Source: Thermodesulfobacteriota bacterium
GTDB taxonomy: Bacteria; Desulfobacterota; Desulfarculia; JACQYL01
Length of the DNA stretch: 64,000 bases
Assembly: GCA_963675595.2 (NCBI GenBank)
Contig: CAXXLZ010000001.1
Coordinates: forward strand, 832,001-896,000
Direction: 5' to 3'
Shown: positions 25,682 through 56,615 of the stretch, in pieces
How the letters are laid out: each line of letters starts with the position of its first letter
Position numbering within the stretch: the stretch's first letter is position 1
The notes under the pieces: model-generated
What the model saw: only the letters and a program-made list of their open reading frames with translations
The model's database searches: none
What the model was told of the DNA's origin: nothing
Made by a program: the position numbers and the translations under genes

Positions 25682-25698
25682 GCTGCTCGCTTTGATCC

Positions 25699-36153: not shown

Positions 36154-39100
36154 ATGGCAGGTGGAAGACTGACCATCGGAAAAAGAATCGGTTTGGGGTT
36201 CGGCTTGGTGCTGACGCTTCTGCTGGTATTGGCTGCCGTGGCGGTATGGGGACTTCGGGGGACCGTGGAAAACGCTCGAGAGGTGATTGAAGGGAACCAA
36301 TTGGACGGCACCCTCGCCCAGAAGGAAGTGGATCATCTGAACTGGCTGCGACAGCTCAATCTGTTTCTGACGGACGAACAGGTGACTGAACTCGGTGTGC
36401 AAACGGATGATACGCGCTGTGCCTTTGGGAAATGGCTATTTGGACCGCCGCGTGTGGAAGCCGAGAAGCTGGTTCCTGAATTGACCCCCCTTCTGAAGCA
36501 GATAGAGGAACCCCACCGAAATTTGCATGAATCCGCGAGAAAGATCGGTGAGACGTTTCGGCAACCTCATCGCGACTTGGCCGTGACGTTGGAGGACCGC
36601 TTATCGGACCACTTGGCCTGGGCCGAAGCGGTCGGGAGTACGTTGGCTGCGGAGAGCGCCGGGCTTGATCGCATACGGTCCATGGTCCAAAACTGTGTCC
36701 GCCTGGCTGTGTCCGCTATCCGAGGCATTTATGAAGACCCTTCGCCGTTGTCCGAGCAGGACTGGAATGCCCCCCGATAATTGGTCCATGTATAATGAGA
36801 GTCTGAATGCCCAAAGAACGGAAGGAGACTTTTTGCATGGCCAAGAGAAAGAGACACAGCGCGGAGCAAATCATCCGGAAACTTGAAGACGCGGACCGTC
36901 GTCTGACGGCAGGGCAGACGATAGCGCAGGTTTGCCAATCGCTGGAGGTGAGCGAGGCGACGTACCACCGGTGGCGAAACCAGTATGGGGGGATGAAGGC
37001 TGAGGAGGCCAAACGGCTAAAAGAACTGGAAAAGGAAAATGCACGCTTAAAAAAGCTGGTCGCCGATCTGATGTTGGACAAGGCAATGCTGAAGGATCTT
37101 GCGGAGGGAAACTTCTAAGCCCGGCGCGTCGTAGGAAAGCGGTTGATTATGTTCGAAGTGAACATGCCGCTTCAGAGCGTCGGGCCTGCCGCGTAGCCGG
37201 TCAACACCGATCCACCCAACGTTATGAGCCGAAGGAACGGGACGATGAGGTGGAACTGATCAAGGCTCTTCACCGGTTGGTTGGAGAACATCCCCGTTTT
37301 GGATGCCGTAGGATCACTCGGCTGCTGCGTGATGCGGGGTGGGCGGTAAACTACAAGCGAATTCATAGACTTTGGAAAGAGGAGGGATTCAAGGTACCTC
37401 GAAAAGCCAAGAAGAAACGCTTCCTGGGAGTTGATGCCAATGCGTGCAACAAGCGTAAGGCGGCTTTTGCAAATGATGTCTGGACGTTGGATTTCATTCA
37501 TGACCGCTTGGTCGACGGCCGTCAGTTCAAGTGCTTGGCCATTGTCGACGAGTTTACTCGGGAAAACCTGGCCCTGAGGATCAACCGCTCCATTACGGGT
37601 GAAGACGTTTTGAACGAGCTGAGCCGATTGATGGGCGAGCGGGGAGTTCCAACGGGCATTCGATCGGATAACGGTCCCGAATTTATAGCCCAAAAGGTGA
37701 GAAATTGGCTGAAAGACCTGGGAGTGGGAACCTTTTTCGTCGAGCCGGGAGCCCCTTGGCAGAACGGGTACGTGGAAAGTTTCAACAGCCGTTTTCGGGA
37801 TGAATTCTTGAACATGGAAATTTTCAACAACATCAAGGAAGCGCAGACTCTGGCCGCCAAATGGCGGAAAGTCTATAACGAGGAAAGACCGCACAGTGCA
37901 TTGAATTACATGACCCCGGCCCGGTTCGCGGCGAGCCCTTGGGGCCTCGACTCCGCCTCGCTCAGCTCGGCTTCGCCGTGGCCCCAAGGGCCGGGGATGG
38001 AAAACCGCGAGTCATGATAAAACTCTCATAACTCCTGGACCAAAAACTGGGGGCTTGACAGGACCGAAAAGAACGAGCCATGCGCGTGGTCGCCTCCATG
38101 CGCTACGGCCCGGAAAACAAAGACTATCTTTGGATCAACGACATGCGTCCCTATATGGTCATGCACCCCTACAAACCCGAGCTGGATGGCACGGACCTGT
38201 CCGAGTTCTCGGACCCCAAGGGAAAGAAGCTGTTCGTGGAGGCCGTCAAAGTGTGTCGGGAAGGGGGAGAGGGCTTCGTCATGTACGAGTGGCCCTTGTA
38301 CGGCGCGGATGCTCCTGTTCCCAAGATTTCTTACGTGAAGCTGTTCAGACCGTGGAACTGGATTGTGGGTACCGGTGTGTATCTGGATCATACCAATGAA
38401 GCGCTCATGGCCAGGGCCGCCCAGGTTGCGGCCGGTGAACCGTTCTCTTTGGGCGTCGAACTGGACCCCACTCTTTGTGCTTTCGGTCGGTTCATCGATT
38501 CCCCTGAGACGGCTTCGCTTGCCGAAAAGTTTCCTGTTTTGAAACAGGTATTGGAGGAAATTCGAGAGCCTCACGAACAACTGCACCGTTCCGCCCGGAA
38601 GATCCAAGAGCTCGTCGACAGCGATCGCACGGAAGATGCGATCCGGGTGTACCAGAACGAAACAAAGGCTTCCCTGAAAAGAACCCTCGACCTGATGAAC
38701 CGGATCATCAAAGCGGAGTCCGAATTCGTCGATGCTCAGGAGGCCGCCAAACGGATCTACGCCCGGGAAACCGTTCCCAACCTTGAGGCGATTCAGGGGC
38801 TTCTTAGAAGAATCAGGGTGGTGGCTCGGGATAACATCACCACGGATCAGGTTATGCTCGACGCGGCTCGGCGAACCCGCCGGAATGTTACATGGATCGC
38901 CGTAGTGTCCGTCATCCTGGGGATCGCCCTGGCCTTCCTGATATCGAAAAGTACGGTAGGCATCCTGACTCGTATTTCACGCCACATGGACGGGGCCGCC
39001 CACCATGTGGCCGCAGCAGCCGGTGAAGTCGCCTCAAGCAGCCAGATGGTGGCGCAAGGCACATCGGAACAGGCTTCCTGCATCGAAGAGACATCCGCCT

Positions 39101-40050: not shown

Positions 40051-42423
40051 TCAGCTGTTCTCCGGATATTTAAAGGAAACGTTGAAGGTCCCGGAGATAT
40101 GTGGACAATTGAGAGTCATCACCCCGGTGGTGCTGCCTGTGAGGTTCAGACTCAAGGCGCAGGACTGTCCAAGGATGTCGGATTGAACGGAGATGCCGTC
40201 CGTAAAGTCGGGATCCAGGTGAGCCGTCAATCGACCTGCGGCTAATAAAACGATTACGCAGGACCCCGTGTCGTATTTCTGAAGGTAGAACTTGATGGAC
40301 CCATCGGGGTTATGCCAGATGGCATTGGTGGGAATAGACGGCCCGGTTTCTCCGTTGTCGGGATACGTCAAGGATACGGGAACGGAAAATGAACGAGTTG
40401 GAAGTTGGGCCGTGAGCGTGCCGGCGGAACCCCCGGCCGTACTGAGGGTGAGTGAGTAATTTTGACCCAGGATATCCTGAGTGCAGGATATACCGTCCTT
40501 GTAGTTCGGATCCAAAAAGGCCGTGAGCACGCCGTCCACAAACGCCACGACTACTGCGGAACCGGCCTGATATTTTTGAAGGTAGAAATTGACCTCGTTC
40601 GCCGAGCATTTCCAGATGCCGTTTTCGGCGTAGTAAGCGGTGCTGTCGAAAAGCAGTTCCACGTCGTCCACAATAAAGTTGGTGATGAGGCTTTCATCGG
40701 TGATCGCGAAGAATTCAACGGCAACATCTTGCCCGATGAACTCTGAAATGTCGAAAGAGGCGCTCCGAATCCAGTCATCCGTGGCATCCGCGTTGCTGAG
40801 AACGGTGATGTCCTTATAGTAGTCGTCGCTTGCGCGGTAGATACCGATTTCGAGCGTGTCGTAGGGTTCGAGCTCTTCCTCTTCCGTCTCGATACCGTAC
40901 CAGAAACGGAGCGTCGCGTTCTTGGCCGTGGAGGGAATCTTGAAATCCTGGGCGAGATAATCGAATTCCATGTAGTCGTATCCGCCCAGCCATGCGGCCC
41001 AGCTACCCTTATGGGCGCATTCGAGTCCGCCGAAAGTGTAGCAGGGCAGTTCCCAGATCACCCATCCCGTGGAGAACCATGCTCCGTCGTCTCCGTTTTC
41101 AAAGTCGGGGTTTTCCAGAATATTGGTGGTCAGCGCGGCACTGTCTTGGGTTACTGTAACTGTTTTTCCGGCGATGTTCAGCGTGCCCGTTCGCGCGTCT
41201 CCGGTATTGACGGAAACGCTGTAGGTCACCGTGCCGTTGCCGCTGCCCGAGGCCCCCGAAGTCAGCGATATCCAGGAGGCTTGAGAAGATGCGGTCCAGG
41301 CGCAGCCGGCGTTGGAGGCGCTCACCTTGAAAAGACCTTCTCCTCCGCTGGAGTAGAAATTTTCTTCATTCGGCAGCACTGAGTAATTGCACTCCGATCC
41401 ACCGCTCTCGAAGTCGATGTCCAGTGTTTGCCAGAAGAAGGCATAGAAGGTCTCATCATAGTATTGGTAGGTGCAATCGTAATTCATGTGCATGGGAATG
41501 CGGTACAGCCCGTTGGGGCGGTTGGCGGGCCCCCCCCAGCTGTTGAGAATAAGCCAGTAGTGGTTTGCCGGATCGGGGGCGGTATCGTCATAACCCACGA
41601 GCAACACGGCATGTCCGCCTCCCTCGTCCGTGTACGTCATCCCGCAGGTGTCCCGGTAAAAGAGAGCGTTTTCCGATTCGTCGTCCCAGAATGAGTAGAA
41701 ATGGTTCCAACTCGAGTCATCGGGGAGATAAAAGCCGAAAAAAATGGCTTTGTTCTGGTGAAGCACGTTCTTTATGTTGGCAATGGCCGCCGCCTCGCCG
41801 ATCCCGTAGGTTTGAACGGTCACCGGAGTGATGGATCGGATGGGATAATTGGTGTCGGTCTGAATGCCGGCACAACTGGTCACACTGGAACCGTAGTTAC
41901 AGCCGCTTTCGGCATCCGCGAAGGAGGCGTTTCCATTGGACCAAGGAAAGAACATGCCCACTCTCCCATACCAGGAGGCGTACTTCTCCAACGTGCCGCC
42001 GCAGCAGGCAAAGTTGTCCATCTTGCAGGAGTTTAGATACTGAGTGGACAGTCGGTCGTAGATGCCTTGCTGCGTAGACAGCGCCACTTCCACCACGCCG
42101 GTGCCCGCCCAATTCCAGCAGTTTCCGCAGTAACCCTGATTCCGTTCGTCGGGATCGTAGGTCAGATATTGCAGTAGGCTCTTCGATCCGCCCATGCCTT
42201 CCAGCTTGCTTTGTTGCAGCGATTTGGTTATGGCAGGGTCCGTGTACGCGGCGGCGGCATTAAGTCTCTCGCTCTGCCATCTCAAAATCGTGTCCACGGA
42301 GGGCCGCATGATCCGGTCCCGAAGCCGTTCCCGATCGAGGTCGGACGAATCCGCGGACCAGGCGAAGCTTAACGTCGATGCGAAAAGAAAAAAACTCATC
42401 AGAAACCAAAACATCTTTTTCAT
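40051..42423 (-). CDS. Secreted papain-like (C1) cysteine peptidase with BACON, jelly-roll and two unknown C-terminal domains
   Basis: Signal peptide; RNQGYCGNCW, GGHAVLLVGY, ILNSWG catalytic motifs; CAWTASSQASWI..NTGDARTGTL BACON signature. Confidence 0.9.
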   Translation of the reverse strand: MKKMFWFLMSFFLFASTLSFAWSADSSDLDRERLRDRIMRPSVDTILRWQSERLNAAAAYTDPAITKSLQQSKLEGMGGSKSLLQYLTYDPDERNQGYCGNCWNWAGTGVVEVALSTQQGIYDRLSTQYLNSCKMDNFACCGGTLEKYASWYGRVGMFFPWSNGNASFADAESGCNYGSSVTSCAGIQTDTNYPIRSITPVTVQTYGIGEAAAIANIKNVLHQNKAIFFGFYLPDDSSWNHFYSFWDDESENALFYRDTCGMTYTDEGGGHAVLLVGYDDTAPDPANHYWLILNSWGGPANRPNGLYRIPMHMNYDCTYQYYDETFYAFFWQTLDIDFESGGSECNYSVLPNEENFYSSGGEGLFKVSASNAGCAWTASSQASWISLTSGASGSGNGTVTYSVSVNTGDARTGTLNIAGKTVTVTQDSAALTTNILENPDFENGDDGAWFSTGWVIWELPCYTFGGLECAHKGSWAAWLGGYDYMEFDYLAQDFKIPSTAKNATLRFWYGIETEEEELEPYDTLEIGIYRASDDYYKDITVLSNADATDDWIRSASFDISEFIGQDVAVEFFAITDESLITNFIVDDVELLFDSTAYYAENGIWKCSANEVNFYLQKYQAGSAVVVAFVDGVLTAFLDPNYKDGISCTQDILGQNYSLTLSTAGGSAGTLTAQLPTRSFSVPVSLTYPDNGETGPSIPTNAIWHNPDGSIKFYLQKYDTGSCVIVLLAAGRLTAHLDPDFTDGISVQSDILGQSCALSLNLTGSTTGVMTLNCPHISGTFNVSFKYPENS

Positions 42424-44379: not shown

Positions 44380-46092
44380 TCACCGTCGTCGGACGACGCG
44401 AAAGCCGCCGTCCTCGGCGCACAGTCTCGGATCGCTCCACACCTGTGATGAAATCATGCAGCCCAAACTGCCTGCCAGGAATGATCCTCCTTTGATAAGC
44501 CGATTCAAGGAAGCGGAGTTCATACCGTCCGGAATCCGGGAAAGTGTTGCAGGAGAATTCACCGCATCTTGTTCATAGCTCCAATTGTCGCACCATTCCC
44601 AAACGTTTCCCGAAAGGTTGTGTATCTTCTTTTCTCCCCAGTAACTTGCTCCCCGGGGGAAGGCGTCCACTTCCATAACCGCCGTGCCGGGAATGCCGCG
44701 AACAGGTCTCAAGGTTTCCTCACTGTTGCAGCGGCCCGGCTCCCAAAGGGCCCCCCATGGGTAGTTTTTGAAAGACGGCGGGGAGTTGTGGGAAACCGAG
44801 GCGACGAGCCGGCTTCCGTCGACGTCCCCTAGCGCCGCGGTAGTCCATTGGAATTCCGTGGGTAGACTTCCGCCTCGCCAGTCGGCATAAGCCTTTGCCG
44901 CGAACCAGGAAACGTACGTTACCGGATGCCGGTCCGCCGATGGTGGAAAACGATCCGGTGCAGGCCAATGTTTCAGATAGTCCCCGTCATGAAAGGCGGT
45001 CGGAATGCGATCCTTCCGCCATTGTGGATTTGCCTGAACGAAATCAAGGAACTCACGGTTCGTGGTTTCCGTAGCCGAAATGAGAAAGACCGGGCCGTCC
45101 CTTGGCGCGACCTTGACCCAATCCGGTTGGGAAGACGGATCGGTCGGCATCTCCACGTTCGACAACTCGACCAGCGGATAAGTGGACAGGGGAAAACCGT
45201 GGGTCAGGGCCAATGTGGAGATGGTAGGGCGCTGATGTTGGTTCAGTCGCTCCGCCGCCTCCGCAACTTTGTCTTCCAGATATTCCCAGATTTCCCAGAC
45301 CTCGACCACATTGTCCCGATTGCCGTCCGCCCCGCCCTTGAGGCCCTCCATGAGGAAATAAGTGAACGCGCCGTGACCCGGATCGGCCAATTCAACGGAT
45401 AGCTGATCTCCCTCGGAAGCGGTGATGACGATTCGACCTGTTCCGCCGAATTCTCTGAATGCATCCTTTACCTCACGGTGATGAAAGGATTCGCCTCGAG
45501 GATAGCTGATCACCGTGGCCGAACTGAAACAACAATCCACGAACAAGATCAAACGGCGTGCCCGGATTCGGTTGATCAGTCCACTGATTTCTTTTTGTGA
45601 TAGGGCGCTGCCCGAAAGAATCTCCAATTCATTTTGTTGATAAGCGCGCAGATCCACTTCGGTGTCGTGCAGAATCCAATAACCCTCCCCGTCGGCGTTC
45701 CGGATCCCATGGGAGGAAAAGTAGATCAGTACCGTGTCCTCGGGAAGGGCGTCCGCTGCAAGGCGCTCCAAGGCCGAGCGTACACCGTTGGTGGTGGCCT
45801 CTTCGTCCAGCAGCGTGTTGAGATCAAGATTCGGCACCGGGAGATGGTTCGGGTCCTTCAGCAAGGAGCGCAAAGCCGAGGCGTCCGCACGGCAGAAACG
45901 AAGTGGACGAATCTTACCGTCGGAAAAACGATCGATGCCGATGAGCAGCGCCCGGTACACTCCGGCGGAAGGGTCTTCCGTGATGCGGAGAGAGGAATCT
46001 TCCACGGGCCGGACCACGATGGCTTTCTGAGCCCGAGCGATGCCCGTCGAAGTCAGGAGGACCAAGATCACGCAGATACACATCTTTCTCAT
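44380..46092 (-). CDS. Exported caspase-like (C14) peptidase fused to an FGE-sulfatase/CLec domain
   Basis: Signal peptide MRKMCICVILVLL..ARA; RALLIGID, YFSSHG (His), FVDCCFS (Cys), HGAFTYFL; then ETTN, HPVTYVSW, LPTEFQW, SGNVWEWC, KGGSF, GFRVV. Confidence 0.9.
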   Translation of the reverse strand: MRKMCICVILVLLTSTGIARAQKAIVVRPVEDSSLRITEDPSAGVYRALLIGIDRFSDGKIRPLRFCRADASALRSLLKDPNHLPVPNLDLNTLLDEEATTNGVRSALERLAADALPEDTVLIYFSSHGIRNADGEGYWILHDTEVDLRAYQQNELEILSGSALSQKEISGLINRIRARRLILFVDCCFSSATVISYPRGESFHHREVKDAFREFGGTGRIVITASEGDQLSVELADPGHGAFTYFLMEGLKGGADGNRDNVVEVWEIWEYLEDKVAEAAERLNQHQRPTISTLALTHGFPLSTYPLVELSNVEMPTDPSSQPDWVKVAPRDGPVFLISATETTNREFLDFVQANPQWRKDRIPTAFHDGDYLKHWPAPDRFPPSADRHPVTYVSWFAAKAYADWRGGSLPTEFQWTTAALGDVDGSRLVASVSHNSPPSFKNYPWGALWEPGRCNSEETLRPVRGIPGTAVMEVDAFPRGASYWGEKKIHNLSGNVWEWCDNWSYEQDAVNSPATLSRIPDGMNSASLNRLIKGGSFLAGSLGCMISSQVWSDPRLCAEDGGFRVVRRR

Positions 46093-46109
46093 GCTTGGAT
46101 CCCTTCCGG

Positions 46110-49100
46110 CTATTGCCAGTCGCCGTAGAGGACAAAGGCGCTCCAATAGTATGGGTGGGACCACTCCGCGCGCTTCATTAACGAAAGCTTGGCGAGACGT
46201 AGAGATTCCGATTTGTCGTGTCCGCTCAGATAGTTTTCGTAGAATCCGCGCATGAGTTCACGAGTGGCTTCGTCGTCCACGTCCCACAAAGAGCATAGTA
46301 CGCTCGGTGCCCCCGCGAACATGAGTGCCCGAGTGAGACCCACCAGATCATCCCCGGCGCCGAGTTTGCCTTTACCCGAGGAACACGCGGACAGGCTCAC
46401 GAGAGATACGCCACGCCAGTCCAGGCCGAAAAGCTCGTGCATTTCCAGATTGCCGTCGTTTTCCCCATCGGGCGTCAAGGCCAGGTACGATAGAGGCGGT
46501 GCGATCTCATTGAAAATGCCGTGGCAGGCAAGGTGAACCACGTCGGGACTCCCCAGCCGGGCGAGCGGCTGTTTGACATACGTCTCCGTGGCCTCGGTGC
46601 GTTTTCGCAGAACTGCCTTCGGAAACAGACTCGCGACCTCGGCGGCCTCGCGCTCGGCCCCCGGCAACGGCGATAGGGCCGTCACCGGATTGCCGACGGC
46701 GAATATCCTGCTTCGGCCGGAGCGGCGCTTATTCAGCAGATAACGATAGACGCCCGCCGAGGGTGAAACGACCATACGATGGGAAGCGACCAGGACCTCG
46801 CCGTTGTCTGCGTTAAGGGCGCCGAAAGGAATCTTGTACATGGGGCCCCACGGAATCACCACGAGGGCCTCGTGTCCAAGGAGTTTCTCAATGGGTTGGA
46901 TAAGTCGCGAATACAGTCCGCCCGACAAAGACCGTAATTTCGGTAAGTCCGTATCGCCGGCTTCCAGCACTCGTACAAAGGCCTCCAGTTCGGCCTCCAA
47001 GGTCTCGCGGCTCACATCCACCCGTTCAAAATGGAGACTATTCCGCGTTATCACGAATACCCACAGCTCATTCCGTTTTTTCCCGTCCGGATATTTCATT
47101 TCCCCCGGGTGGTGGTACTCCACCAGAACAACACCGTCTCCCAGAAACGATTGGACTTCTTCCAACGTGGGGGCGTCCACGCAAATCAGAGACCCGAGTT
47201 CGGCATCTGCACGCCTGATCTCCTCGATCAGTTCCAGACGTTGTCTCTCCATCGCGCCCATCTTTCGTTCAACCGTCTCCGGTGCCGACCGGGTCTTTTG
47301 TCCGACCGGACCCGAGGACTCCAATGTCCAGGAATCTCTCTCCTCACTCAGCGCCCGATACTCTCGTTCCAACCGGTCCAATTGGGCGCTTTTCGCATAG
47401 GTGGTGTCGTTCCGTGATGAGGCGACCAACTCCTCCGTGGCCAGCAGGTCCAGAAACGATTTGGCCCGTCTTCTTTCCAGGGCGTTGAAGGCTTCGGACT
47501 CGGCCCCCATCGCCAGGGACGCCGCGGCCAAGTTGTCATAGTAGTTTCCATGAGCCGCCTGGAACTTCGCTCGGCGGGAACCCTCCCCGATTTTGCCTCG
47601 AACCTGTTCGAAGTATTCGATTCCGCGTTTCAGGGAGGACACGGCTTCGCGGGGACGATCGGCGAGGCGGAGCAATTCACCCAGATTGCACGAAACCGTG
47701 CAGGCGCTCTGGGGCTCTCCGGCCTCCATGACGATGGACAAAGCCTCTCGATACAGGGGCTCGGCTTTGTCGTAATCTCCCATCGCCGCATAGAGCCCGG
47801 CCAGATTGTTCAGACTCTGAGCGCAGGCCGGGTGCTTCTGACCCAACGCCTTTTCCCTGATTGCCAATGTCCTTCGATACAAAGGTTCGGCCTCGTCGTA
47901 TCTCCCCATGGCTTCATAGAGTGTCGCCAAGTCGTTCACACTCCGGGCGTAGTCCGGGTGGCCTTCACCGAGCGCCGCCTTCATCACGGTCATGGCCTCT
48001 CGAAGCAGCGGTTCGGCTTCGTCGAGATTTCCCGTGACTCGGCACAGTCCCGCCAGATTGTCGAGGCTCAAAGCGTAGTCCGGATGGTTCGGCCCCAGCA
48101 CTTCCTTTCGAATGGACACGGACTCCTGCAACAATCGTCGAGCCTTGTCGTACTCGCCGATGGACTGATGGAGCGCGGCCAGGTTGTCCAGGCTTTGGGC
48201 ATATTCAGGACTTTTCTTCCTTAGGGTGCTCACGTCTATGGACTTGACTTCAAGCAACAAGGGCTCGGCCTTGCCGAACTCGCCCATGGCCATGTAGAGC
48301 AGGGCCAGGTTGTTGAGGCAGGACGCATACTCCCCGTGTTTCTCTCCCAAGGCCTCCTTCTTGATGACCAGGGCTTTCCGGAAGAGCGGTTCGGCCTCGG
48401 CGTATTCGGCCAGGGTACGGTAGAATTCGCCCAGGTTATTGAGGCTGGTGGCATAGTCGGGATGCTTTTCTCCCAGAACGCTTTTTCTGAGGTCCAAGGC
48501 CTTCTTCAGAAATCGTTCCGCTTTGCCGTATTCTCCCATGGAAACATACAGAGAGGCCAAGTTGTTCAGGCTTTGGGCGTAAGCCGGGTGCCCTTCCCCC
48601 AAGGCTCGTTTCCTGACGTCCATGGCCTGCAGGTACAATGTCTCGGCCTGAGGGAATTCCCCCATGCATTTATAGAGATAGGCGAGATTGTTGAGGCTGA
48701 CGGCGTAGTCCGGGTGGTTTTCGCCGAGAACCCTCTTTCTGATGGCGATTGTTTCCTTCAGAAGGGGCTCGGCTTTGGCGTATTGGTCCGTGGAAACGTA
48801 CAGGGCGGACAGGCTGTTCAAAGTGGTGGCATAGTCCGGATGCTTGTCACCCAGGTGTCTTTTCCGGATTTGCATGGCCTTGAGCAGGAGCGGTTCCGCC
48901 TCGGCATACCTCCCCATGGAACGATACAACTCGGCCAAGTTGTTGAGACCCAGCGCGTAATTCGGGTGATTCTCCCCGACGATCCTTTTCCATACGGCCA
49001 TGGATTCTTTGTACAGAGGCGCCGCCTTTTCGTATTTGCCCATGGATTTATACAGCAACGCGAGGTTGTTGAGGCTGACGGAGTATTCCGCGGGATTCGC

Positions 49101-49298
49101 GGCAGCCCTACTCTTGCGCAAGGTCACCACTTCTTCGGCAATGCGTGCGGCTTCCTCGTATCGCCCCTGTTGATAAAGTTGAATCACTTCGCGGTTCAAG
49201 GCATCGGCGTCCCGACTCCATGACGGAGGAGCGCACAGAATCGACACGATCACAAGAAACGCAAACAGCCCCCTTACCCGTTTCCTCGTTTGCGGCAT
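46110..49298 (-). CDS. Exported TPR-CHAT domain protein
   Basis: Signal peptide; about 12 42-aa TPRs (HPDYA.SLNNLA.LY); CHAT motifs VHLACHG and LSACSSG, SLWDVDD, HPYYWSAF. Confidence 0.93.
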   Translation of the reverse strand: MPQTRKRVRGLFAFLVIVSILCAPPSWSRDADALNREVIQLYQQGRYEEAARIAEEVVTLRKSRAAANPAEYSVSLNNLALLYKSMGKYEKAAPLYKESMAVWKRIVGENHPNYALGLNNLAELYRSMGRYAEAEPLLLKAMQIRKRHLGDKHPDYATTLNSLSALYVSTDQYAKAEPLLKETIAIRKRVLGENHPDYAVSLNNLAYLYKCMGEFPQAETLYLQAMDVRKRALGEGHPAYAQSLNNLASLYVSMGEYGKAERFLKKALDLRKSVLGEKHPDYATSLNNLGEFYRTLAEYAEAEPLFRKALVIKKEALGEKHGEYASCLNNLALLYMAMGEFGKAEPLLLEVKSIDVSTLRKKSPEYAQSLDNLAALHQSIGEYDKARRLLQESVSIRKEVLGPNHPDYALSLDNLAGLCRVTGNLDEAEPLLREAMTVMKAALGEGHPDYARSVNDLATLYEAMGRYDEAEPLYRRTLAIREKALGQKHPACAQSLNNLAGLYAAMGDYDKAEPLYREALSIVMEAGEPQSACTVSCNLGELLRLADRPREAVSSLKRGIEYFEQVRGKIGEGSRRAKFQAAHGNYYDNLAAASLAMGAESEAFNALERRRAKSFLDLLATEELVASSRNDTTYAKSAQLDRLEREYRALSEERDSWTLESSGPVGQKTRSAPETVERKMGAMERQRLELIEEIRRADAELGSLICVDAPTLEEVQSFLGDGVVLVEYHHPGEMKYPDGKKRNELWVFVITRNSLHFERVDVSRETLEAELEAFVRVLEAGDTDLPKLRSLSGGLYSRLIQPIEKLLGHEALVVIPWGPMYKIPFGALNADNGEVLVASHRMVVSPSAGVYRYLLNKRRSGRSRIFAVGNPVTALSPLPGAEREAAEVASLFPKAVLRKRTEATETYVKQPLARLGSPDVVHLACHGIFNEIAPPLSYLALTPDGENDGNLEMHELFGLDWRGVSLVSLSACSSGKGKLGAGDDLVGLTRALMFAGAPSVLCSLWDVDDEATRELMRGFYENYLSGHDKSESLRLAKLSLMKRAEWSHPYYWSAFVLYGDWQ

Positions 49299-49343
49299 GT
49301 TGACGTCCTTTGCTTGAGTTACCGTTATCGCAGTTGCGGCGTC

Positions 49344-50402
49344 TCAGTAGAAGCCGTCATAGATGTCCATGTCTCCCGACCGGCTCCTTCGTTCCACTCC
49401 GGCTTTGAATTGTCGTAGGGCTTCATAATCGGTGAACTCCACCCGGCGGTTCATGGCTTGGTGCTCCTCCGTGTCGTTGGGCACCAGCGGTCTGGAATCA
49501 CCGTACCCGCGGATTTCAAAGCGCTCCTCCTTCAATTGAAGCCGGTCCACCAGATATCGCTTTACACTGTCCGCCCGAGACAGGGAGAGCCGCCTCAGAC
49601 CCTCGGGGGAATCACCGCACTGAGTATGTCCTTCAATGAGAATTCTCTTGTCCTTCAGTGTACCGCTTTCCAAGGCTCGTGCGAGTTCTCTCAGCTGTCC
49701 GTGGGATTCGGGCAGAATATCGCATCGATTCATCTCGAACCGAATCATGAGCGGTACTTTCGGCCCCTTGTAGGGTGACTGGCCCCTGGTGAACGTCCGG
49801 TTCAATTTGGATCGGATTTCTTCGGAGGGCACAAGCCGGCTTGAAACCTGCCGGTCCAACAGGGCTGCTATGCGGTCTTCCAATTCGATCGCCCTTTGAG
49901 CCGCAAACGACATGCACTGCTTGGTGCCTGCATCTGCGGTCTCTGCGGCGGCGGAGGCGCAAATGCGCAGCCGTTCCCGAATCTCGTATAAGTTCGGCGG
50001 TATTCGGACCGAAGGCCTCAACAGCAGATCGGCTACCTGCAGGGCGTTCTTGAAAGCCGGTTCGCGACTCGGATCAAGACCCGCCGCTTCGGAATAGTGC
50101 TCCAACGCACGATAAAGGCTCCGTGTGTTGTGCCAGGTCGGGCCGGTTCGCCTCCATTCTTCAAGGGCTTGTTGGTGAAGCACATAAGCCAGGTTGAAAT
50201 GCGCCGCCGCGTATCTCGGGTCGACTTGAACGGCGTTTTCATAACATGCGGCCTCCTCGTCCGAGTTGGGCAGGGTCCGGGCCGTTTCCAGTCCTTTGTC
50301 CACCCATTGCCGTGCCTCATCCAAAGGGGCCGCCACGGCCGGAAAGCTCGTGAAGAACAGCAAACAAGAAACAAAAAAAACGGCCTGATAACAGGTCCTC
50401 AT
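49344..50402 (-). CDS. Exported TPR + OmpA-C-like domain protein
   Basis: Signal peptide ending AVAA; YAAAHFNLA TPR; IRFE...IEGHT...LSLSRA..VK..L...GYGDSRP...NRRVEF. Confidence 0.88.
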   Translation of the reverse strand: MRTCYQAVFFVSCLLFFTSFPAVAAPLDEARQWVDKGLETARTLPNSDEEAACYENAVQVDPRYAAAHFNLAYVLHQQALEEWRRTGPTWHNTRSLYRALEHYSEAAGLDPSREPAFKNALQVADLLLRPSVRIPPNLYEIRERLRICASAAAETADAGTKQCMSFAAQRAIELEDRIAALLDRQVSSRLVPSEEIRSKLNRTFTRGQSPYKGPKVPLMIRFEMNRCDILPESHGQLRELARALESGTLKDKRILIEGHTQCGDSPEGLRRLSLSRADSVKRYLVDRLQLKEERFEIRGYGDSRPLVPNDTEEHQAMNRRVEFTDYEALRQFKAGVERRSRSGDMDIYDGFY

Positions 50403-50787
50403 GGACGCCGACTCCCTGTGATTGAATCCGTTTGTCCAGCCTTTCGAAGTCAGGCGCCAAAGGGCAGGTGCCCGGGGTTCATGACGCCCCTGTGGAGAGC
50501 CGACTCACGCGCCCGACTTTGTATGGGATGGTTCCTCCATGAAGCTGCAAGCATAGGCCGAAGAACGGATCAACAAAAAGGAAAAAATCTTTCGAACGCG
50601 CATCGGGAAGCGACATGGGACGTAACGCCGGGACCCGGTTGTCTTTTTCTAAGGAAACAGGGCGCGCACCGTCTTGAGGGAGGAGGCCGGCGCACGCACG
50701 ACGGTTGTCGGCCGTTCCCGTTGCCGGCGAGGGAAGGGCGGGAGGCCTTCGGGATCGAGGGGCATTCTCCAGGTCGGACCATGGTGA

Positions 50788-52968
50788 TCAAGGCGTCTTT
50801 TCACCGGTTACGGCACCCCGCAGCCAATGCCATGCGGCGTCGATGTCGAAGAATCTAGATCCATAACCGAGGGCGCGCAGTCTCTTCGGCAGGAAGTGAT
50901 CATGCTTTTCTGTGATTGTATCCGCCGCATTCTCCGCAAGTTGTTCCGGAGTCGGCTTGGGTTTTCGGAGGATGTCCTCGACCGCCGCGACAAAGTCGTT
51001 CTCTTGACCTTCGAAAACGTCGATCACACCGGCGAAACAGTCGACCGTGAGTCCTTCCCCGCGCAAGAGAGCGGAAATCGTGTGGCAGGTTTCGTCTCCA
51101 AGCCAGGGAAGGATATGGAGATGTCTTTCATTCCGAATCACACTCGCGTTTTCGAGCCCCAGGGAACGAAAGCACTCGACTCCCTCTTCGAACAGGGCCT
51201 TGGCGGCGCGATCCAGGTAGATCGGCATCGTCCCGTCCCGGTACACCCGAAACATTTCCCGCCTTACCCGGTCATGTACCCCATATCCGCTTCCTCCAAA
51301 CCTCGGAGGTTTACCGCCTACGGCTCTCTTGAGCACTACCCGCTTGTTGTCGGGATCCACATGCCGGACTTCCCACCTCCTGCCGGCGAACACAACCAGT
51401 TGTCCCTCAAACAAAGGATTGTCGATGGGGACCGTGCCCAGAATTCGTCCTTCGAACTCCAGGCGGTACTCTTCCGGAGTCTTGAAAGCGGTATAGAACG
51501 TATAGTGTTCGACGAGTCTTTCCCCTTTGCGGCCGAGAACGATTTGTCCGTCCCGTGTTTGTGTGATGAGGTCGTGTTCTCCGAGGCTCCTGAGGAACTC
51601 CACGTACAGGTTCCGGTCGATCCGCCCAAAGGGGCCGGTGTCGCAGAGCAGCGACCAGAGCTGCACGGCCGCCACGCCGCCGTATTGACCGATGACGGAG
51701 AGGGTTTGTTGCACCAACGTCGACAGATGGTACCGGCTCTCCTGGGGCGGCTCATACCATTTATCGAGCAACAGGTTGATCATGGCGATGCACTGGAAGG
51801 TTTCCAGGCGCAACCGATCCCGCAGGTGACTTCTTGAAGTGACCTCATCCTCGGTGATGAACAACCTCAGAACGGCGGGTTCGCCTCTTCGTCCGGACCG
51901 ACCGAGACGCTGACGCAAACCGGCCACCGAATGCGGGGCGGTCACTTGAGCAATGGAATCCACCGATCCGATGTCGATTCCAAGTTCGAGAGTCATGGTA
52001 CAAATTGCGGTGGTCGGTTTTTTCCCTTGTTGGAGCCTGCACTCCAGACCCTCGCGAATTTCCTTGGAGAGATTCCCATGATGGGGGAAGAATTCGTTGG
52101 GAACTCCGTCGCGGTTGCAGCGGTCCGCCAAGCCGGCGGCGATTTCTTCCGTCCTCCGTCGCGTATTGGCGAAGACCAGATGCGACTTTCCTCTCAAGAC
52201 GGCGTAAAGGTCGTCCTCGACCCGTTCGAACACCGGTGGGTCGGTACCCTCGGGGTAGGCCGGGGAGCGATAGCCCCTGAGCTGTATTTTCAGGTCGGAC
52301 TTGCTTGCCGTTGATTCGATGATTTCGCAGGGAACGTCTTGATTGGGCCTCAGGCACTTTGCGACACGGTCCAGCTCGCCCAGCGTGGCGCTGAGCGCGA
52401 TTCGAGGAATAGTCCGGCGTAGTAGGAATTCCAGCCGGTGCATCAGAGACTGCAGTTGGCGGCCTCGCTCGGTGCCTATGAAGGAATGAAACTCATCGAT
52501 GATGAGGTAACGCAATCCGTTGAATGCGGAGCCGATCCAATTCGTTTGGTTCAGAAGCAGCGACTCCAGAGATTCGGGCGTAATCAAAAGAACGCCGCCG
52601 GGCTTCTTTCTCTGCCTGTTCTTGAGGGAGGGGCCCACATCTCCATGCCACGGAGTCACCTGCAACCGCAGCAGATCGCAGAGGTCTTGAAGTCTCCGAT
52701 ACTGATCGTTGATCAATGCCTTCAAGGGGCTGATATAGAGGATTCCAATACCGTCGAGTTCGAGTCGCGCAATGTGTGAACAAGCGGGAAGGAACGCGGC
52801 CTCCGTCTTTCCGGAGGCTGTGGAAGCGCTGAGGACAACGTCGCAATCCCCTCTCAGAATCGGTTCGACGGACCGTTCCTGAATATCGCGAAGGGCCCGC
52901 CAACCCTGCTTCCACACCCAGCGCCGCACTCCCTCGTGTAACAAAGCAAAGGCGCGAGACTCACTCAT
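50788..52968 (-). CDS. sngC: Lhr-like DEAD/DEAH helicase (Shango SngC-like)
   Basis: TASGKTEAA, SPLKALINDQ, IDEFH, LSAT, TLELGIDIG, QRLGRSGRR; third gene of the TerB/ATPase/helicase trio. Confidence 0.85.
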   Translation of the reverse strand: MSESRAFALLHEGVRRWVWKQGWRALRDIQERSVEPILRGDCDVVLSASTASGKTEAAFLPACSHIARLELDGIGILYISPLKALINDQYRRLQDLCDLLRLQVTPWHGDVGPSLKNRQRKKPGGVLLITPESLESLLLNQTNWIGSAFNGLRYLIIDEFHSFIGTERGRQLQSLMHRLEFLLRRTIPRIALSATLGELDRVAKCLRPNQDVPCEIIESTASKSDLKIQLRGYRSPAYPEGTDPPVFERVEDDLYAVLRGKSHLVFANTRRRTEEIAAGLADRCNRDGVPNEFFPHHGNLSKEIREGLECRLQQGKKPTTAICTMTLELGIDIGSVDSIAQVTAPHSVAGLRQRLGRSGRRGEPAVLRLFITEDEVTSRSHLRDRLRLETFQCIAMINLLLDKWYEPPQESRYHLSTLVQQTLSVIGQYGGVAAVQLWSLLCDTGPFGRIDRNLYVEFLRSLGEHDLITQTRDGQIVLGRKGERLVEHYTFYTAFKTPEEYRLEFEGRILGTVPIDNPLFEGQLVVFAGRRWEVRHVDPDNKRVVLKRAVGGKPPRFGGSGYGVHDRVRREMFRVYRDGTMPIYLDRAAKALFEEGVECFRSLGLENASVIRNERHLHILPWLGDETCHTISALLRGEGLTVDCFAGVIDVFEGQENDFVAAVEDILRKPKPTPEQLAENAADTITEKHDHFLPKRLRALGYGSRFFDIDAAWHWLRGAVTGEKTP

Positions 52969-52976
52969 GCGAAACC

Positions 52977-54302
52977 TCAGAGCCTGAAAGAGGCCAATTC
53001 ATCATTGTCGTCGGCATCCGTCGTTCCCACGGAGGGCATATTGGTGTCGGCCTCTTCAGGAATGCGGACTCGACTGATGAGCCGGTCCCAGTGCAGATCG
53101 GGATTCTGCTCGAGGATCGCCAGGAGATCGACAAACGCCTTGATGGTGTTGCGCGGCGTTCTGAAGTAGGCGTCTCCGACTCGCTCGGAACAATGGGCCA
53201 GAAAAGCGGTCAGCGCCTCATCGGGAACCAGGTACTTGTCTTGATCGCCCCCGGCGAAAACATGGCGCAGGTTGCGCAGCAGAACATACAGCTCTTCCGG
53301 GGCAAGATTGGCCAGGTGAAGGGTTGGGGCGTAGTAGTCCACAAGTCCGGCTTTTTCGGCGAAGGCATTGTCGGCCAGACGGGATTGCAGGGCTTCATAG
53401 CTGTAGAGACCTTTGCGCGGGTCCAGCAAAAAATCGGGGGTGCCGCCCAGAATGAAGCCGATGTGCCCGGCGCTTCCCTGCAGGCAATCATTCAGAATGT
53501 GCAATATCTTTTCATAGTTGGAAACACGCGCCTTTTGACTAGGAAGCTTGTACAGGGCGACGGTTTCATCCAGGTTGACCAAGAGGCCTTGATAGCCCGC
53601 CTGCCGAACGAACAAACTCATGAGCTTCAAATGGTCGTAAATGTCTGCGTCATCAACGATGGTGCGCACGCCCAGAGCGCTACGCGCCTCCGTCTTCGTA
53701 GTGAATTCGCCTCGAAACCAACGCACTGCGTCGGACTTGAGTTGCCGGTTGTCCTGTTCATGCCCTTTCCAGTATGCGGAAACCACTTTGGCGAAGTCGT
53801 ACCCGCCCACCAGTTCGCTCAAGTGATCCAACTGCTGGGAAATCACGGAATCCACCGTCTCGCCCGACGAGTCCGAATGTTTGCGCGCTTCCGTGATGAA
53901 CCGTTCCACAACACTCGACAAGGCATTGCCTTCCGGCTTCGTGCGTGTGGAAATATTCTTCATTAGTTCGGCGTAAAGGTTCCTCGCTTGTCCGCCGGTC
54001 GCGTGAAGCCGCCTTTCGGGAGACAGATCGGCGTGCACGGCGACCAAGCCCTTCTCCAGCGCTATGGAGCGAATCAATTGCAGAAAGAACGTCTTACCCG
54101 AACCGAACTCTCCAATGATCAGGCGGAACGCGGAACCCCCGTCGGATATGCGTTCGATGTCCTTGAGCAAGGCCGCGACCTCGCGGACCCGGCCGACCTG
54201 AATATGCTGCAAACCGATACGCGGCGTCACTCCGGCACGAAGCGACTGAATCACGGCGTCCCGTTCCCTGGGGCGGAGTTTCGGTTTGTTCTCATTGAGC
54301 AT
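52977..54302 (-). CDS. sngB: P-loop ATPase of the DUF2791/BrxD type (Shango SngB-like)
   Basis: QSLRAGVTPRIGLQHIQVGR; GEFGSGKT; LVNLDE; SYEALQSRL. Confidence 0.85.
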   Translation of the reverse strand: MLNENKPKLRPRERDAVIQSLRAGVTPRIGLQHIQVGRVREVAALLKDIERISDGGSAFRLIIGEFGSGKTFFLQLIRSIALEKGLVAVHADLSPERRLHATGGQARNLYAELMKNISTRTKPEGNALSSVVERFITEARKHSDSSGETVDSVISQQLDHLSELVGGYDFAKVVSAYWKGHEQDNRQLKSDAVRWFRGEFTTKTEARSALGVRTIVDDADIYDHLKLMSLFVRQAGYQGLLVNLDETVALYKLPSQKARVSNYEKILHILNDCLQGSAGHIGFILGGTPDFLLDPRKGLYSYEALQSRLADNAFAEKAGLVDYYAPTLHLANLAPEELYVLLRNLRHVFAGGDQDKYLVPDEALTAFLAHCSERVGDAYFRTPRNTIKAFVDLLAILEQNPDLHWDRLISRVRIPEEADTNMPSVGTTDADDNDELASFRL

Positions 54303-56529
54303 CGATCATCTCCTTGGCCAGGCTCACGTCCACGTAGACGGGGTCTCCGTCGTCGAGGAGAGGAGCATGTGCGGTATCGAAAGCCCATTCATTGAGCACT
54401 TCCATGGCGCCGTCCACCATGAGCCCCAGTTCTTTGCACAGTTCATGAAACGCGGTTCGGTCCCATGTTTCTTTGGTGATGAGTCGGTCGAAAAGCTTCC
54501 GATGGGGACGATCCAATCCCACGAGCGGATCCTTGTTGGAAACGACATCTCCGGAAGGCGTCTCGGCCTCGAGAGCCTCTTCGGTCCGTTCGGAGAATAT
54601 CCGCTCCAGCACACCTTGCACCTGTCGCGTTTCCTCTTCTCGAATCCTGATCAACTCTTCATTCAGCTGAAACCGTTTTGCGGGGGGCGGCTCCGCCCTC
54701 GGCTTTGGAACGGAAAAAATGGGTTCCCGGTCTCGAAAGGCCACGGTCACCGGCTCGGTTTCCGCGGCCAAGGCATGAATATCCCCGGCAACCCGATCCT
54801 TTTCCAGGCCGATGGAGGCATAAAGCTTTTCCAGTTGCCTGACTTCCTTCGGGGCTATGCGGCCGTCCGCATGGGCCACCGAAATCAGTATGCGACTGAT
54901 TGCGTTTTTTTCCGGGACATCGAGTCGCGAAAGAATGGGTTTCAGACCCGCCGCACCCTGTGGGGTTCTCATGCACCAAGTCAAGAAAGCGGATAGGGAA
55001 TTCTTTTCAATATCGGTGAGTCGACGGTCGTCCCGTATCAAATGTCTGAGCGTCGCCTCTTCAGCCGGCGACAGGTCCCGGTCGATTTGGCTTACCAGAG
55101 CCCCGAGTCGAAGAACGGCGCCCATGGTTCGGAACTCCGGCGACGGCCGGAAATCCGAACCATGTCCCTGAGGAAAGACCGCCACTTTGCCGCCGGGGTC
55201 CGGCTTCATGGGATGAAATCGAACGTCGGGCGCCATTCCGAATCCCGCCGCCTGCATCACGATCGCCAGGTTCTCCGCGTCTTTTTTGGTCATTCGTTCG
55301 GGAGACTCCCGGCCGAAGCCCTCATAGAGGACATCCACGTCGATCAACGTGGGACCGTTGGCGCAAATGCGGGCAAGGCTTCCTTTTGCCGCGATGACGT
55401 TGGGAGACTTGCTCTTCAATTGGTCGGGAAGAAGCGCCAGGGTGTCCAAAGAGTCGGCGTCGGCCCCTTTTCTCGCGAGCCAACGGCTGTAGGGTTCCAA
55501 GTCGGCCGTGCATTCTTCCACTAGCCCGCTCAGTTTCTTCAATGGTGCGGTCAGAATGAACGGATTGGGGATGTCCGGCGTCCTGAGTTTCAGACCACCC
55601 GCCAGGGAAGGACTCGCGGCGCGATATTGGACCTTCAGAGGCGTCTTGTTCGGCTTGACGACCAGCCCCGCGCCGAAACACTTTTCGTATCGGGCGGCGA
55701 AAAGTTCCCGGAACTCCCTCGCGCAGCGACGCGCGGGCGTCTTAAGTCCGAAGTCGGGATGCAAAGTGTACCATTGGAGCGCCAAGTCCGCGGGGATGGG
55801 TTTTCCCTCGGCGACCATCCGCGCAAGGAGGAACTGAAAGGATGGCAGGCAGTATCGGTCGTTGAGGTCAAGATAGTCGGGCACGGGTTCGTCGCTGCGA
55901 TACACCATCCATTCCATGGCGAGCAGGCCGTGGGCGTAGCGGCGAAACGACCGATTGCTTCCGTAGATGGCGAGCAGGCGTTTCACTTCGTCGATAATTT
56001 CCCGCCGCTCACGGTCGGAGATGCCTTCCCGTTGACCGTCGACGAATAATCGACGTTCGAGACCATAGAAGAACAAAAAGACATATCCGATATAGGTTTC
56101 AGGTTCGGACCGTCCGGTGGCCGGCCATTTCAGGTAGGCGCCGCGGCACTTTGCCGGAATCGTCGCATACCTCGGCCAATAATCCATTTCGTCGCCGGCC
56201 TCCCAGGGTTCCGCCGGCGATACCTTGAGCCTTGGGTTGATGAGACACGCGTCGTCGCCGTACCCGTGGATATCCGGCAGGCGTTCGCCCACGTAGATCA
56301 GCCCGCCGGGGATGTCATAGCCTTGTACGGTGACGGGCCGGTCCTTTCCGTACCATTGTGTCGGTTTCTTCCTGGAGCGCGAAGAAGGGGCGGGCGCACT
56401 CTCATCGGCGTTCAGTATGTCGTGACGGAAGGTCGGTTCCGGGCGTTTCGATACGTCTTTTTGGGAGAAGAGTCTCCTCACGACACGATACGCGAGATAC
56501 AGGAGAAACAGGCCGACGAGCAGTTTCAT
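54292..56529 (-). CDS. sngA: TerB-N/TerB/TerB-C protein (Shango SngA-like)
   Basis: N-terminal TM; YWPRY..I...CRGAYL; IGYVFLFFYGLERR; VAHADGRI; C-terminal LGLMVDGAMEVLNEWAFD. Confidence 0.85.
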   Translation of the reverse strand: MKLLVGLFLLYLAYRVVRRLFSQKDVSKRPEPTFRHDILNADESAPAPSSRSRKKPTQWYGKDRPVTVQGYDIPGGLIYVGERLPDIHGYGDDACLINPRLKVSPAEPWEAGDEMDYWPRYATIPAKCRGAYLKWPATGRSEPETYIGYVFLFFYGLERRLFVDGQREGISDRERREIIDEVKRLLAIYGSNRSFRRYAHGLLAMEWMVYRSDEPVPDYLDLNDRYCLPSFQFLLARMVAEGKPIPADLALQWYTLHPDFGLKTPARRCAREFRELFAARYEKCFGAGLVVKPNKTPLKVQYRAASPSLAGGLKLRTPDIPNPFILTAPLKKLSGLVEECTADLEPYSRWLARKGADADSLDTLALLPDQLKSKSPNVIAAKGSLARICANGPTLIDVDVLYEGFGRESPERMTKKDAENLAIVMQAAGFGMAPDVRFHPMKPDPGGKVAVFPQGHGSDFRPSPEFRTMGAVLRLGALVSQIDRDLSPAEEATLRHLIRDDRRLTDIEKNSLSAFLTWCMRTPQGAAGLKPILSRLDVPEKNAISRILISVAHADGRIAPKEVRQLEKLYASIGLEKDRVAGDIHALAAETEPVTVAFRDREPIFSVPKPRAEPPPAKRFQLNEELIRIREEETRQVQGVLERIFSERTEEALEAETPSGDVVSNKDPLVGLDRPHRKLFDRLITKETWDRTAFHELCKELGLMVDGAMEVLNEWAFDTAHAPLLDDGDPVYVDVSLAKEMIDAQ

Positions 56530-56615
56530 ATTCCGTTCTCCCCGGGAGCGGACGGCTGAGGAACAGTGCACGTGTACCGTATGAGCGGCTCCGTTGGACA
56601 CTGCTTTCCGTCCGG

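Follow-up and report, generated by a model that had tools for sequence, protein, structure and literature searches.

What would two clan-CD proteases and a TPR-OmpA protein do together outside the cytoplasm, and do they belong together at all? The question is raised by three genes in a 64,000-nucleotide stretch of a Thermodesulfobacteriota genome (assembly GCA_963675595.2, contig CAXXLZ010000001.1, positions 832,001 to 896,000), the whole of which is called the window here. Three co-oriented, intact open reading frames (ORFs) occupy positions 44380-50402 of its minus strand, on which all coordinates within the trio are given, in the order TPR-OmpA, TPR-CHAT and caspase-FGE-like. Gene A (49344..50402; Pfam OmpA and TPR_11) encodes an exported-looking TPR-OmpA-like protein of 352 aa, gene B (46110..49298; Pfam TPR_12/TPR_10 and CHAT) an exported-looking TPR-CHAT protease of 1062 aa, and gene C (44380..46092; Pfam C14 and FGE-sulfatase) an exported-looking orthocaspase of 570 aa fused to a putatively non-catalytic FGE/C-type-lectin-like domain. 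An earlier reading made from the letters without database searches (the sequence-only reading) had described three tightly packed co-oriented genes with gaps of 45 and 17 nt, about 390 nt downstream of a Shango-like helicase on the same strand, with no Cas or gasdermin gene in view. This description stands: the ORF coordinates agree, with gaps of 45 nt between A and B and 17 nt between B and C (gene C starting at 46092), the distance from the Shango gene SngC measures 385 nt, and no Cas or gasdermin gene turned up in Pfam scans of the window ORFs of at least 150 aa.

The trio is a real, conserved unit, rare and accessory. The loci compared were the window and at least five further distinct loci retrieved with an alignment of the caspase domain only (A2), their gene content being read by tblastn and Pfam; when the whole caspase-FGE protein or alignment A1 served as query, the genes listed were all FGE-domain genes, chiefly from Poribacteria, so the caspase-only alignment was needed. 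Among the matches listed, the caspase-FGE gene has an adjoining CHAT gene in 5 of 6 distinct loci and an adjoining TPR-OmpA gene likewise in 5 of 6. TPR-OmpA genes usually come in two copies per locus (A and A'), and at least three gene orders occur, A-B-C, B-C-A'-A and C-B-A'-..-B-A. The other loci are about 50% identical to the window and their order is shuffled, which argues against shared synteny by descent alone, and the arrangement goes beyond chance because the same three families stand side by side on other, unrelated contigs. Furthermore, seven pairs of A and C clusters share the size of their longest contig (40094, 47645, 13657, 4102, 343613, 51359 and 18826). The caspase and OmpA genes seem to make up the core, which a CHAT gene often joins. 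The sequence-only reading had named a trio not conserved as a unit among the results that would speak against it, and the recurrence of each partner shows the opposite.

The individual loci differ in detail. A Desulfocicer metagenome-assembled genome (MAG) carries C-B-A'-(frameshifted FGE fragment)-B-A (L170, the same as L173 and L247), one unbinned contig has B-C-A'-A (L171), and a second unbinned contig has B-(HNH ORF)-C-A'-A (L174). A short contig (L172) reads B-(HNH ORF)-C and then ends, so that TPR-OmpA cannot be judged there, and the locus of Candidatus Desulfacyla euxinica (L248) runs from a Schlafen/AlbA_2 gene through C-A'-A to HipA, the CHAT gene being absent from this 8.8-kb contig. 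The HNH endonuclease ORF between CHAT and caspase-FGE is 145 aa long (L172 1190-1627, L174 6997-7434), does not occur in the window, L171 or L170, and is possibly a mobile insertion. In L170 the CHAT gene B is duplicated, and between the two copies, at 14842-15426, lies a frameshifted FGE-like fragment that tblastn resolved into four pieces in different frames; it looks like the remnant of a duplicated caspase-FGE gene. On the strand opposite the trio, L170 497-8782 holds a further exported-looking set of two caspase-DUF4384 genes, two DUF4384 genes, one DUF3160 gene and a small TPR-OmpA gene, which suggests that the pairing of a caspase with a TPR-OmpA protein is a wider theme. A second, distant set in the window's own genome (contig C2 872000-891000, L325) comprises a 1268-aa TPR-CHAT gene, two membrane ORFs (205 and 390 aa), two caspase-FGE genes with signal peptides (643 aa, and 712 aa with PEGA) and then a 1343-aa NERD-kinase protein.

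How widely the module is spread was assessed at several scales. No hit in 60 relatives spanned both the caspase and the FGE domain (best 5.7e-25 over residues 47-303), and a sample of 400 further genomes from the phylum held no caspase-FGE orthologue at E<=1e-40, which marks the module as rare and accessory. Pattern searches of a species-level genome collection gave only the Desulfocicer and Desulfacyla MAGs among the matches listed, and among these matches all known trio loci belong to Desulfobacterota or are unbinned; 35 pattern matches in viral contigs included no relative. The window's own genome holds one copy of the module. The flanking genes change with each locus, most of them being of the defence or toxin-antitoxin kind: the window has Shango, SoFic, a type I S subunit and RhuM, L171 has NTP_transf_8 and HipA, L248 has Schlafen/AlbA_2 and HipA, and L174 and L172 have Mrr_N besides the HNH ORF inserted there between B and C.

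All three proteins begin with an n-h-c shaped segment of the Sec signal-peptide kind, whose cleavage sites were assigned by eye. For gene A it covers residues 1-24 (50331..50402), MRTCYQAVFFVSCLLFFTSFPAVA followed by AP, with the small-x-small site AVA/AP. Gene B starts with MPQTRKRVRGLFAFLVIVSILCAPPSWS followed by RD, with the site SWS/RD after residue 28, and gene C with MRKMCICVILVLLTSTGIARA followed by QK, with the site ARA/QK after residue 21. For gene C this depends on the gene start: the mechanical ORF begins at GTG 46164, and the true start is likely the alternative ATG at 46092 (MRKMCIC...), because a GGAAGGG Shine-Dalgarno-like site lies 8-9 nt upstream of it and the orthologue N-termini align there. 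Signal-peptide-like N-termini were present in 19 of 19 orthologues readable from DNA (5 A, 4 A', 5 B and 5 C), the A-type sequences (5/5 A and 4/4 A') being joined by the rows of alignment A4, and in 12 of 15 CHAT orthologues, the other three being more distant or perhaps mis-started. Past residue 30 no second hydrophobic segment was found (best 19-residue Kyte-Doolittle mean 0.55 in A, 1.42 in B and 1.24 in C). Lipoprotein anchoring was considered and rejected: there is no lipobox, and Cys22 of gene B lies in a non-canonical context (SILC) that is not kept in orthologues. In more remote caspase-FGE proteins the fusion partner is an envelope domain, TonB_C or PEGA (P0038, P0027, P0052 and P0053). 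We strongly infer that A, B and C are soluble periplasmic proteins, because of the signal-like N-termini, the lack of a later transmembrane-like segment and of a lipobox, and the TonB_C and PEGA fusions in relatives. The sequence-only reading had given all three proteins signal-peptide-like N-termini, and the orthologues agree with it.

Gene B is the CHAT protease of the pair. Pfam found nine TPR_12 and eleven TPR_10 matches and a CHAT domain at residues 794-1060 (E 4e-68; 230.3 bits against a cut-off of 24). The TPR array (residues 29-545; 47664..49214) consists of kinesin-light-chain/LGN-like repeats, and its PDB profile search, swamped by TPR proteins, matched KLC1 with E 1e-37 and GPSM2 with E 1e-46. 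The motifs HLACHG (residues 922-927) and LSAC (residues 969-972) supply the catalytic dyad (46383..46523), namely His926 (codon 46521-46523) and Cys972 (codon 46383-46385), neither of which varies among 6 orthologues or among the 52 rows of alignment A5 (H366 and C412 of the sub-alignment); about 100 residues around the dyad are almost identical among orthologues. Against 15 orthologues of 801-1200 aa, the TPR array is 22-44% identical and the CHAT part 51-66%. A predicted structure of residues 561-1062 (mean predicted local distance difference test score, pLDDT, 88; predicted template modelling score, pTM, 0.85), with predicted disorder in the loop that follows Cys972, was compared with known structures. 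The modelled C-terminal half matched Csx29 (8d9f; Z 28.9, 398 residues aligned, root-mean-square deviation 4.4), separase (5fby; Z 27.8, 307 aligned, deviation 2.9) and DdvA (PDB 8rot; Z 22.7, 329 aligned), with a Foldseek match at E 3.6e-13; by sequence, the CHAT half alone had no PDB match at E<=0.01. In the model, the CHAT half of gene B folds like Csx29, separase and DdvA.

Gene C combines a caspase domain with an FGE fold, joined by a variable, partly proline-rich linker. Pfam placed Peptidase_C14 at residues 47-298 (E 5e-16; 59.7 bits against a cut-off of 21.4) and FGE-sulfatase at residues 334-568 (E 2e-26; 93.8 bits), and BLASTP against a collection of 5.8 billion proteins found 22 full-length orthologue clusters at 36-94% identity. 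The caspase domain spans residues 46-306 (45175..45957), with profile matches in the PDB to the metacaspases 4f6o and 6w8s (E about 1e-4). The motifs SSHG (residues 126-129) and DCCFS (residues 186-190) contain His128 (45709-45711) and Cys188 (45529-45531), which are conserved in 23 of 23 and 22 of 23 rows, respectively; together with the 6/6 conservation in CHAT, both His/Cys dyads are kept, as had been read from the letters. Asp186, two residues ahead of Cys188, sits where metacaspases have an Asp that lines the S1 pocket, and gene C is read as a putative orthocaspase of the Arg/Lys type. Arg199 (45496-45498), present in 23 of 23 rows, lies eleven residues past the catalytic Cys in the loop that follows it. 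In caspase-3 and caspase-7 the cut between the subunits falls twelve residues past the catalytic Cys, and because of this similar distance Arg199 is a candidate activation site by analogy. Orthocaspases have been described to cleave after basic residues (PMC6426788).

The FGE-like domain (residues 336-570; 44383..45087) has profile matches to solved FGEs, among them 6s07 (E 6e-28) and human SUMF1 (2aft, E 7e-22), and it also matches TvpA (2y3c) and PorK (9mzu; PorK/GldK E 3e-8). In FGE, both cysteines of the copper-binding CxxxxC pair are essential for catalysis. The catalytic segment FLCHESYC of FGE aligns with FLADRLGC of gene C, and all 23 rows have Ala or Ser where the first Cys would be. 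Because one of the two catalytic cysteines is missing, the domain is probably a binding module rather than an enzyme, which fits its earlier assignment as a target-recognition module. No sulfatase family turned up in the Pfam scans of the window, only a sulfotransferase (9987-10865). Conservation in gene C peaks in the last 40 residues (75%), and on account of this conserved C-terminus diversification of the domain by a diversity-generating retroelement (DGR) was considered and dropped.

The third protein, gene A, has full-length orthologues in about 28 clusters of the same protein collection. Pfam placed OmpA at residues 222-319 (E 7e-17; 62 bits against a cut-off of 27.2) and TPR_11 at residues 52-78, and the model is well defined (pLDDT 89.4, pTM 0.83). 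Residues 25-181 are TPR-like, with three to four repeats (idealised TPR 1na3, Z 14.2), the structure matches of this domain at Z 12-14 being in the range where helical repeats commonly match; a structure-atlas search with it gave generic TPR clusters only (scores <=0.86). Residues ~198-327 adopt an OmpA-like peptidoglycan-binding fold (5wtl Z 15.1; TagL 5m38 Z 14.6; AbOmpA 3td3 Z 12.9, template modelling score 0.78; 6top Z 12.4). Between the two domains lies a hinge (residues 196-218; 49749..49817) with the motif FTR206-G207-QSPYxGPR, the best conserved part of the protein: mean identity is 68% in the hinge versus 52% in the OmpA domain and 34% in residues 81-195, and all 32 rows have R206 and G207. 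This pattern makes the hinge a candidate recognition or cleavage site. The strict hinge pattern, searched across genome contigs, gave one record only, the already known Desulfacyla contig. A C-terminal tail (residues 326-352; 49347..49427) with the consensus RKRSGxxDxYDxLY-COOH is kept in A orthologues and missing from A' paralogues. Kinesin-light-chain TPRs bind tyrosine-acidic C-terminal motifs; since the repeats of gene B are of the kinesin-light-chain type, one idea is that this tail might dock into a TPR groove of gene B. A complex prediction of caspase-FGE (22-570) with TPR-OmpA (25-352), each with an alignment and run without controls, scored 0.00 and is no evidence either way, and a search for longer, fused forms with gene A gave 16 matches, none with a C14 or CHAT domain, which is weak evidence.

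What the unit would do can be framed from these parts. The reading that we favour, to which we give an even chance, is that the trio is an accessory, horizontally moving, envelope-located and regulated proteolytic unit in the periplasm of a diderm Desulfobacterota cell. A role in conflict, that is, sensing or destroying envelope intruders, is probably likelier than housekeeping, because of the patchy distribution, the island settings, and the duplication and decay. In such a unit the OmpA-like protein would place the set at the cell wall, the CHAT protease would be a partner-specific endopeptidase like its structural relatives, kept inactive by its TPR array until a partner or ligand binds, as in separase and Csx29 and as has been proposed for DdvA, and the FGE-like domain would capture the target. 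Proteolysis may run within the set, with Arg199 of gene C and the Arg206-Gly207 hinge of gene A as candidate sites. Carried further, this becomes a periplasmic cascade in which the TPR-CHAT initiator would sense an invading protein or wall damage and cleave the caspase-FGE executioner after Arg199, and the executioner would destroy the intruder or cut the TPR-OmpA hinge at Arg206-Gly207 and so uncouple the envelope abortively; as a whole we think this scheme unlikely. The order of the cascade, the sensing of a ligand by the TPR array and the part of the OmpA protein as scaffold or substrate are conjectural elements of it. If it were true, bacteria would have an equivalent, made of caspase-fold enzymes, of the serine-protease cascades that work outside the cells in animal immunity, and if the parts act on each other, it would be the first caspase-type cascade in the periplasm and a handle on how diderms sense entry through the envelope. 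The module is small, three genes in about 6 kb. Should it be a housekeeping set of a few sulfate reducers, it would be of local interest only.

Several observations weigh against this envelope-unit reading or parts of it. The argument from defence islands draws on only four or five contexts, the Desulfacyla contig has C, A' and A but no CHAT gene, so the caspase and OmpA genes need no CHAT gene next to them, and the TPR-CHAT protein of the distant set L325 has no obvious signal peptide. One divergent caspase-FGE orthologue, P0025, has Gly at the position of Cys188, with a Cys one residue earlier. The divergence of the TPR array in gene B may simply reflect the fast evolution typical of repeats, and the hinge of gene A is ordered in the model (pLDDT 93-98), which disfavours an exposed cleavage site. 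The gene A of the window has Gln261 in place of the peptidoglycan-binding Asp (GHTD) and Leu269 in place of the usual Asn, so that wall anchoring by gene A in the window genome is doubtful. Arg276 of the diaminopimelate pocket (GHTD ... LSxxRA) is kept. The Asp of the OmpA-like pocket has been reported as important for peptidoglycan binding (PMC6572160). The replacement of both Asp and Asn is confined to the lineage of the window gene A and P0112, and most orthologues keep both residues: residues 258-276 read GHTQ...GLRRLS in the window and in its 97% relative P0112, and GH[AT]D...YNQRLS in most others.

The trio might alternatively be read as a housekeeping envelope protease set that processes or clears the cell's own periplasmic or surface proteins, anchored to peptidoglycan via OmpA and with no role in conflict. 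All of its parts are envelope-type domains; PorK/GldK use the FGE fold in a structural role in the periplasm, proteins of the TPR-OmpA_C type, PorE for one, have been described as machine parts (6top; PMC7192894, PMC12773672), OmpA is listed in 14 metacaspase operons without a defence link in the accessible text of one survey (PMC3501461), and 2 kb downstream of the trio the window encodes a secreted papain-like protease. A housekeeping set should track phylogeny, yet 0 of 400 other genomes of the phylum and 0 of 60 relatives carry the module, its own genome has a single copy, and its neighbours change from locus to locus and are mostly defence or toxin-antitoxin genes. The duplication, the decayed fragment and the HNH insertion point to rapid turnover. 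We hold the housekeeping explanation to be rather unlikely. Another, improbable explanation is proteolytic immunity to imported toxins, in which the FGE-like domain would bind a competitor's periplasm-acting type VI secretion system (T6SS) effector or bacteriocin, the fused caspase would destroy it, and CHAT and TPR-OmpA would regulate or position the pair. FGE-like T6SS immunity proteins are described as acting by binding (10.1101/2021.05.21.445229), and the FGE domain of gene C appears non-catalytic and exported, with an accessory distribution that would suit such a role. No T6SS or effector gene lies beside any locus read, and immunity proteins usually co-vary with their effectors, yet no region of gene C is better conserved than the C-terminal part of its FGE domain (75%).

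Two further explanations deny the trio its independence or its unity, and we hold each to be very improbable. The genes might belong to the neighbouring Shango system as an additional arm and be transcribed together with it. The system is complete in the window at 50788-56601, comprising, all on the minus strand, SngC (50788-52968; PADLOC E 1e-263), SngB (52977-54302; PADLOC E 4e-183, Pfam BrxC_BrxD) and SngA (54292-56601; PADLOC E 2e-80, TerB_N/TerB/TerB_C). It shares the strand of the trio at a distance of 385 nt, and the spacer (50403..50787, minus strand), the presumed site of the trio promoter, has a GGGAG site 10 nt before the gene A ATG; since no minus-strand terminator-like site was found in it, transcription may read through from Shango. 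A scan for the sigma-70 consensus gave 0 sites in this spacer, and the promoter and terminator scan as a whole, with 11 terminator-like sites against 7.7 +/- 2.8 expected, is uninformative. The order C1 protease-EAL-trio-SngC-SngB is colinear in a close-strain contig from another study (11,751 nt, 415 differences), and the local arrangement is also found in strains sampled by two other studies; all of these strains are nearly identical to each other and so give no independent evidence. PADLOC defines Shango by three genes, all complete here, and no SngA, SngB or SngC homologue was found in the five other distinct trio loci, so the adjacency is local. The Shango neighbourhood that the sequence-only reading had pointed out is not conserved. 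The other explanation takes the three as unrelated secreted proteins and chance neighbours, with the proteases as nutritional exoenzymes. Signal peptides alone do not show a final location, and another secreted protease is nearby; yet the same three families occur together in 5 of 6 loci despite about 50% divergence and shuffled order, TPR arrays and a peptidoglycan-binding domain are atypical of nutritional exoproteases, and the CHAT half is predicted to fold like site-specific endopeptidases.

Compared with known systems, an accessory periplasmic unit of this make-up would be a clan-CD protease module of bacterial conflict or signalling, set apart as wholly extracytoplasmic, with two proteases and a wall-binding partner. 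The caspase-fold proteases of bacterial immunity have so far been known mainly as cytoplasmic switches (Craspase, SAVED-CHAT and gasdermin activators), and the sequence-only reading had taken characterised CHAT and caspase systems to be cytoplasmic. That view is outdated by DdvA of Myxococcus xanthus, for which a periplasmic TPR-CHAT domain with a solved structure was described in 2024 (PMC11506125). This sole periplasmic case is a single membrane-bound sensor, and the trio would bring together two proteases, a binding domain and a wall anchor in portable form. DdvA shares with gene B a TPR array and a CHAT domain with a His-Cys dyad; in DdvA these are periplasmic and linked to defence, and for gene B the N-terminus, kept in 12 of 15 orthologues, would predict the same location. 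DdvA differs in being anchored by a transmembrane segment, with a cytoplasmic zinc-binding anti-sigma domain and a cognate extracytoplasmic function (ECF) sigma factor, whereas gene B has only a 28-residue signal-peptide-like segment, then TPRs and no second hydrophobic segment. DdvA also has no partner caspase or OmpA protein and, according to its report, lacks a three-helix motif of the active site (PMC11506125), and gene B aligns over 398 residues with Csx29 versus 329 with DdvA. No sigma factor family turned up in Pfam scans of the window, and gene B was rejected as a DdvA-type anti-sigma factor for want of an anti-sigma domain, a transmembrane anchor and a sigma partner. Csx29 and separase, the best structural matches of gene B, are TPR-regulated, site-specific clan-CD endopeptidases with a dedicated partner substrate; they are cytoplasmic or nuclear and only 14-16% identical to gene B in sequence. 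A Craspase component (Csx29 with Cas7-11/gRAMP and Csx30/Csx31) was likewise discarded, as no Cas family was found in the Pfam or PADLOC scans of the window.

The two-domain architecture of gene C has a precedent in a survey of metacaspases in which 33 of 671 sequences had a C-terminal FGE-sulfatase domain (Asplund-Samuelsson et al. 2012, PMC3501461). The same survey noted N-terminal helices that are possibly signal peptides and OmpA in 14 metacaspase operons (PMC3501461). There the FGE domain is taken as a possible enzyme, whereas the Cys pair of gene C is incomplete, and the accessible text describes no conserved set with TPR-CHAT and TPR-OmpA, the partners defined here. A full-text literature search, confined to the main articles, found no description of the three-gene set; relatives may be listed in the supplements of PMC3501461 (operon tables) and PMC7159879 (source data). 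FGE-fold binders are known from the T6SS immunity protein Tsi3, which acts by binding (10.1101/2021.05.21.445229), and from DGR-diversified CLec/FGS sensors (PMC7159879, PMC10907252). Gene C shares with Tsi3, TvpA and PorK/GldK the apparent use of the FGE fold for binding and not catalysis, several of these being periplasmic; in contrast, no DGR, T6SS or type IX secretion system (T9SS) gene turned up in the Pfam scans of the window, and gene C varies least in its C-terminal region, the part that is hypervariable in DGR targets. For gene A, PorE of the T9SS likewise combines TPR and OmpA_C-like domains (PMC7192894, PMC12773672), and TagL of the T6SS shares the OmpA-like fold. Gene A differs from both in being small, with no lipobox and with a family-specific hinge and C-terminal tail, and the window copy is without the canonical pocket Asp.

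The remaining genes around the trio are local features. Downstream of it lies an EAL protein on the other strand, followed at a distance of 2 kb from the trio by a 790-aa protein of the papain family (Peptidase_C1; 40051-42423, minus strand), which looks secreted and carries BACON and MAM-like domains and has no counterpart in the orthologous trio loci. Beyond Shango come a SoFic-like Fic protein (57778-58968), a type I restriction specificity subunit (59451-60953), whose start is overlapped by an insertion sequence (IS) transposase (60916-62625), and a RhuM/PDC-S05 gene (63039-63950). No gene for a type I methylase or restriction subunit was recognised in the window, and Rfam gave no family anywhere in it. 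The window is rich in insertion sequences (659-3764, 12961-17568, 22599-27294, 37250-38017 and 60916-62625), comprising an IS21-type element (Mu-transposase/IstB) and several DDE transposases, and contains near-identical IS3-type integrase ORFs at 3030-3764, 14652-15419, 22599-23222 and 37250-38017. A stretch of low GC content at 4048-12228 (0.42-0.48 versus about 0.56 elsewhere) holds a polysaccharide-synthesis cluster with two methyltransferases, two GT4 glycosyltransferases, a sulfotransferase and a flippase-like gene.

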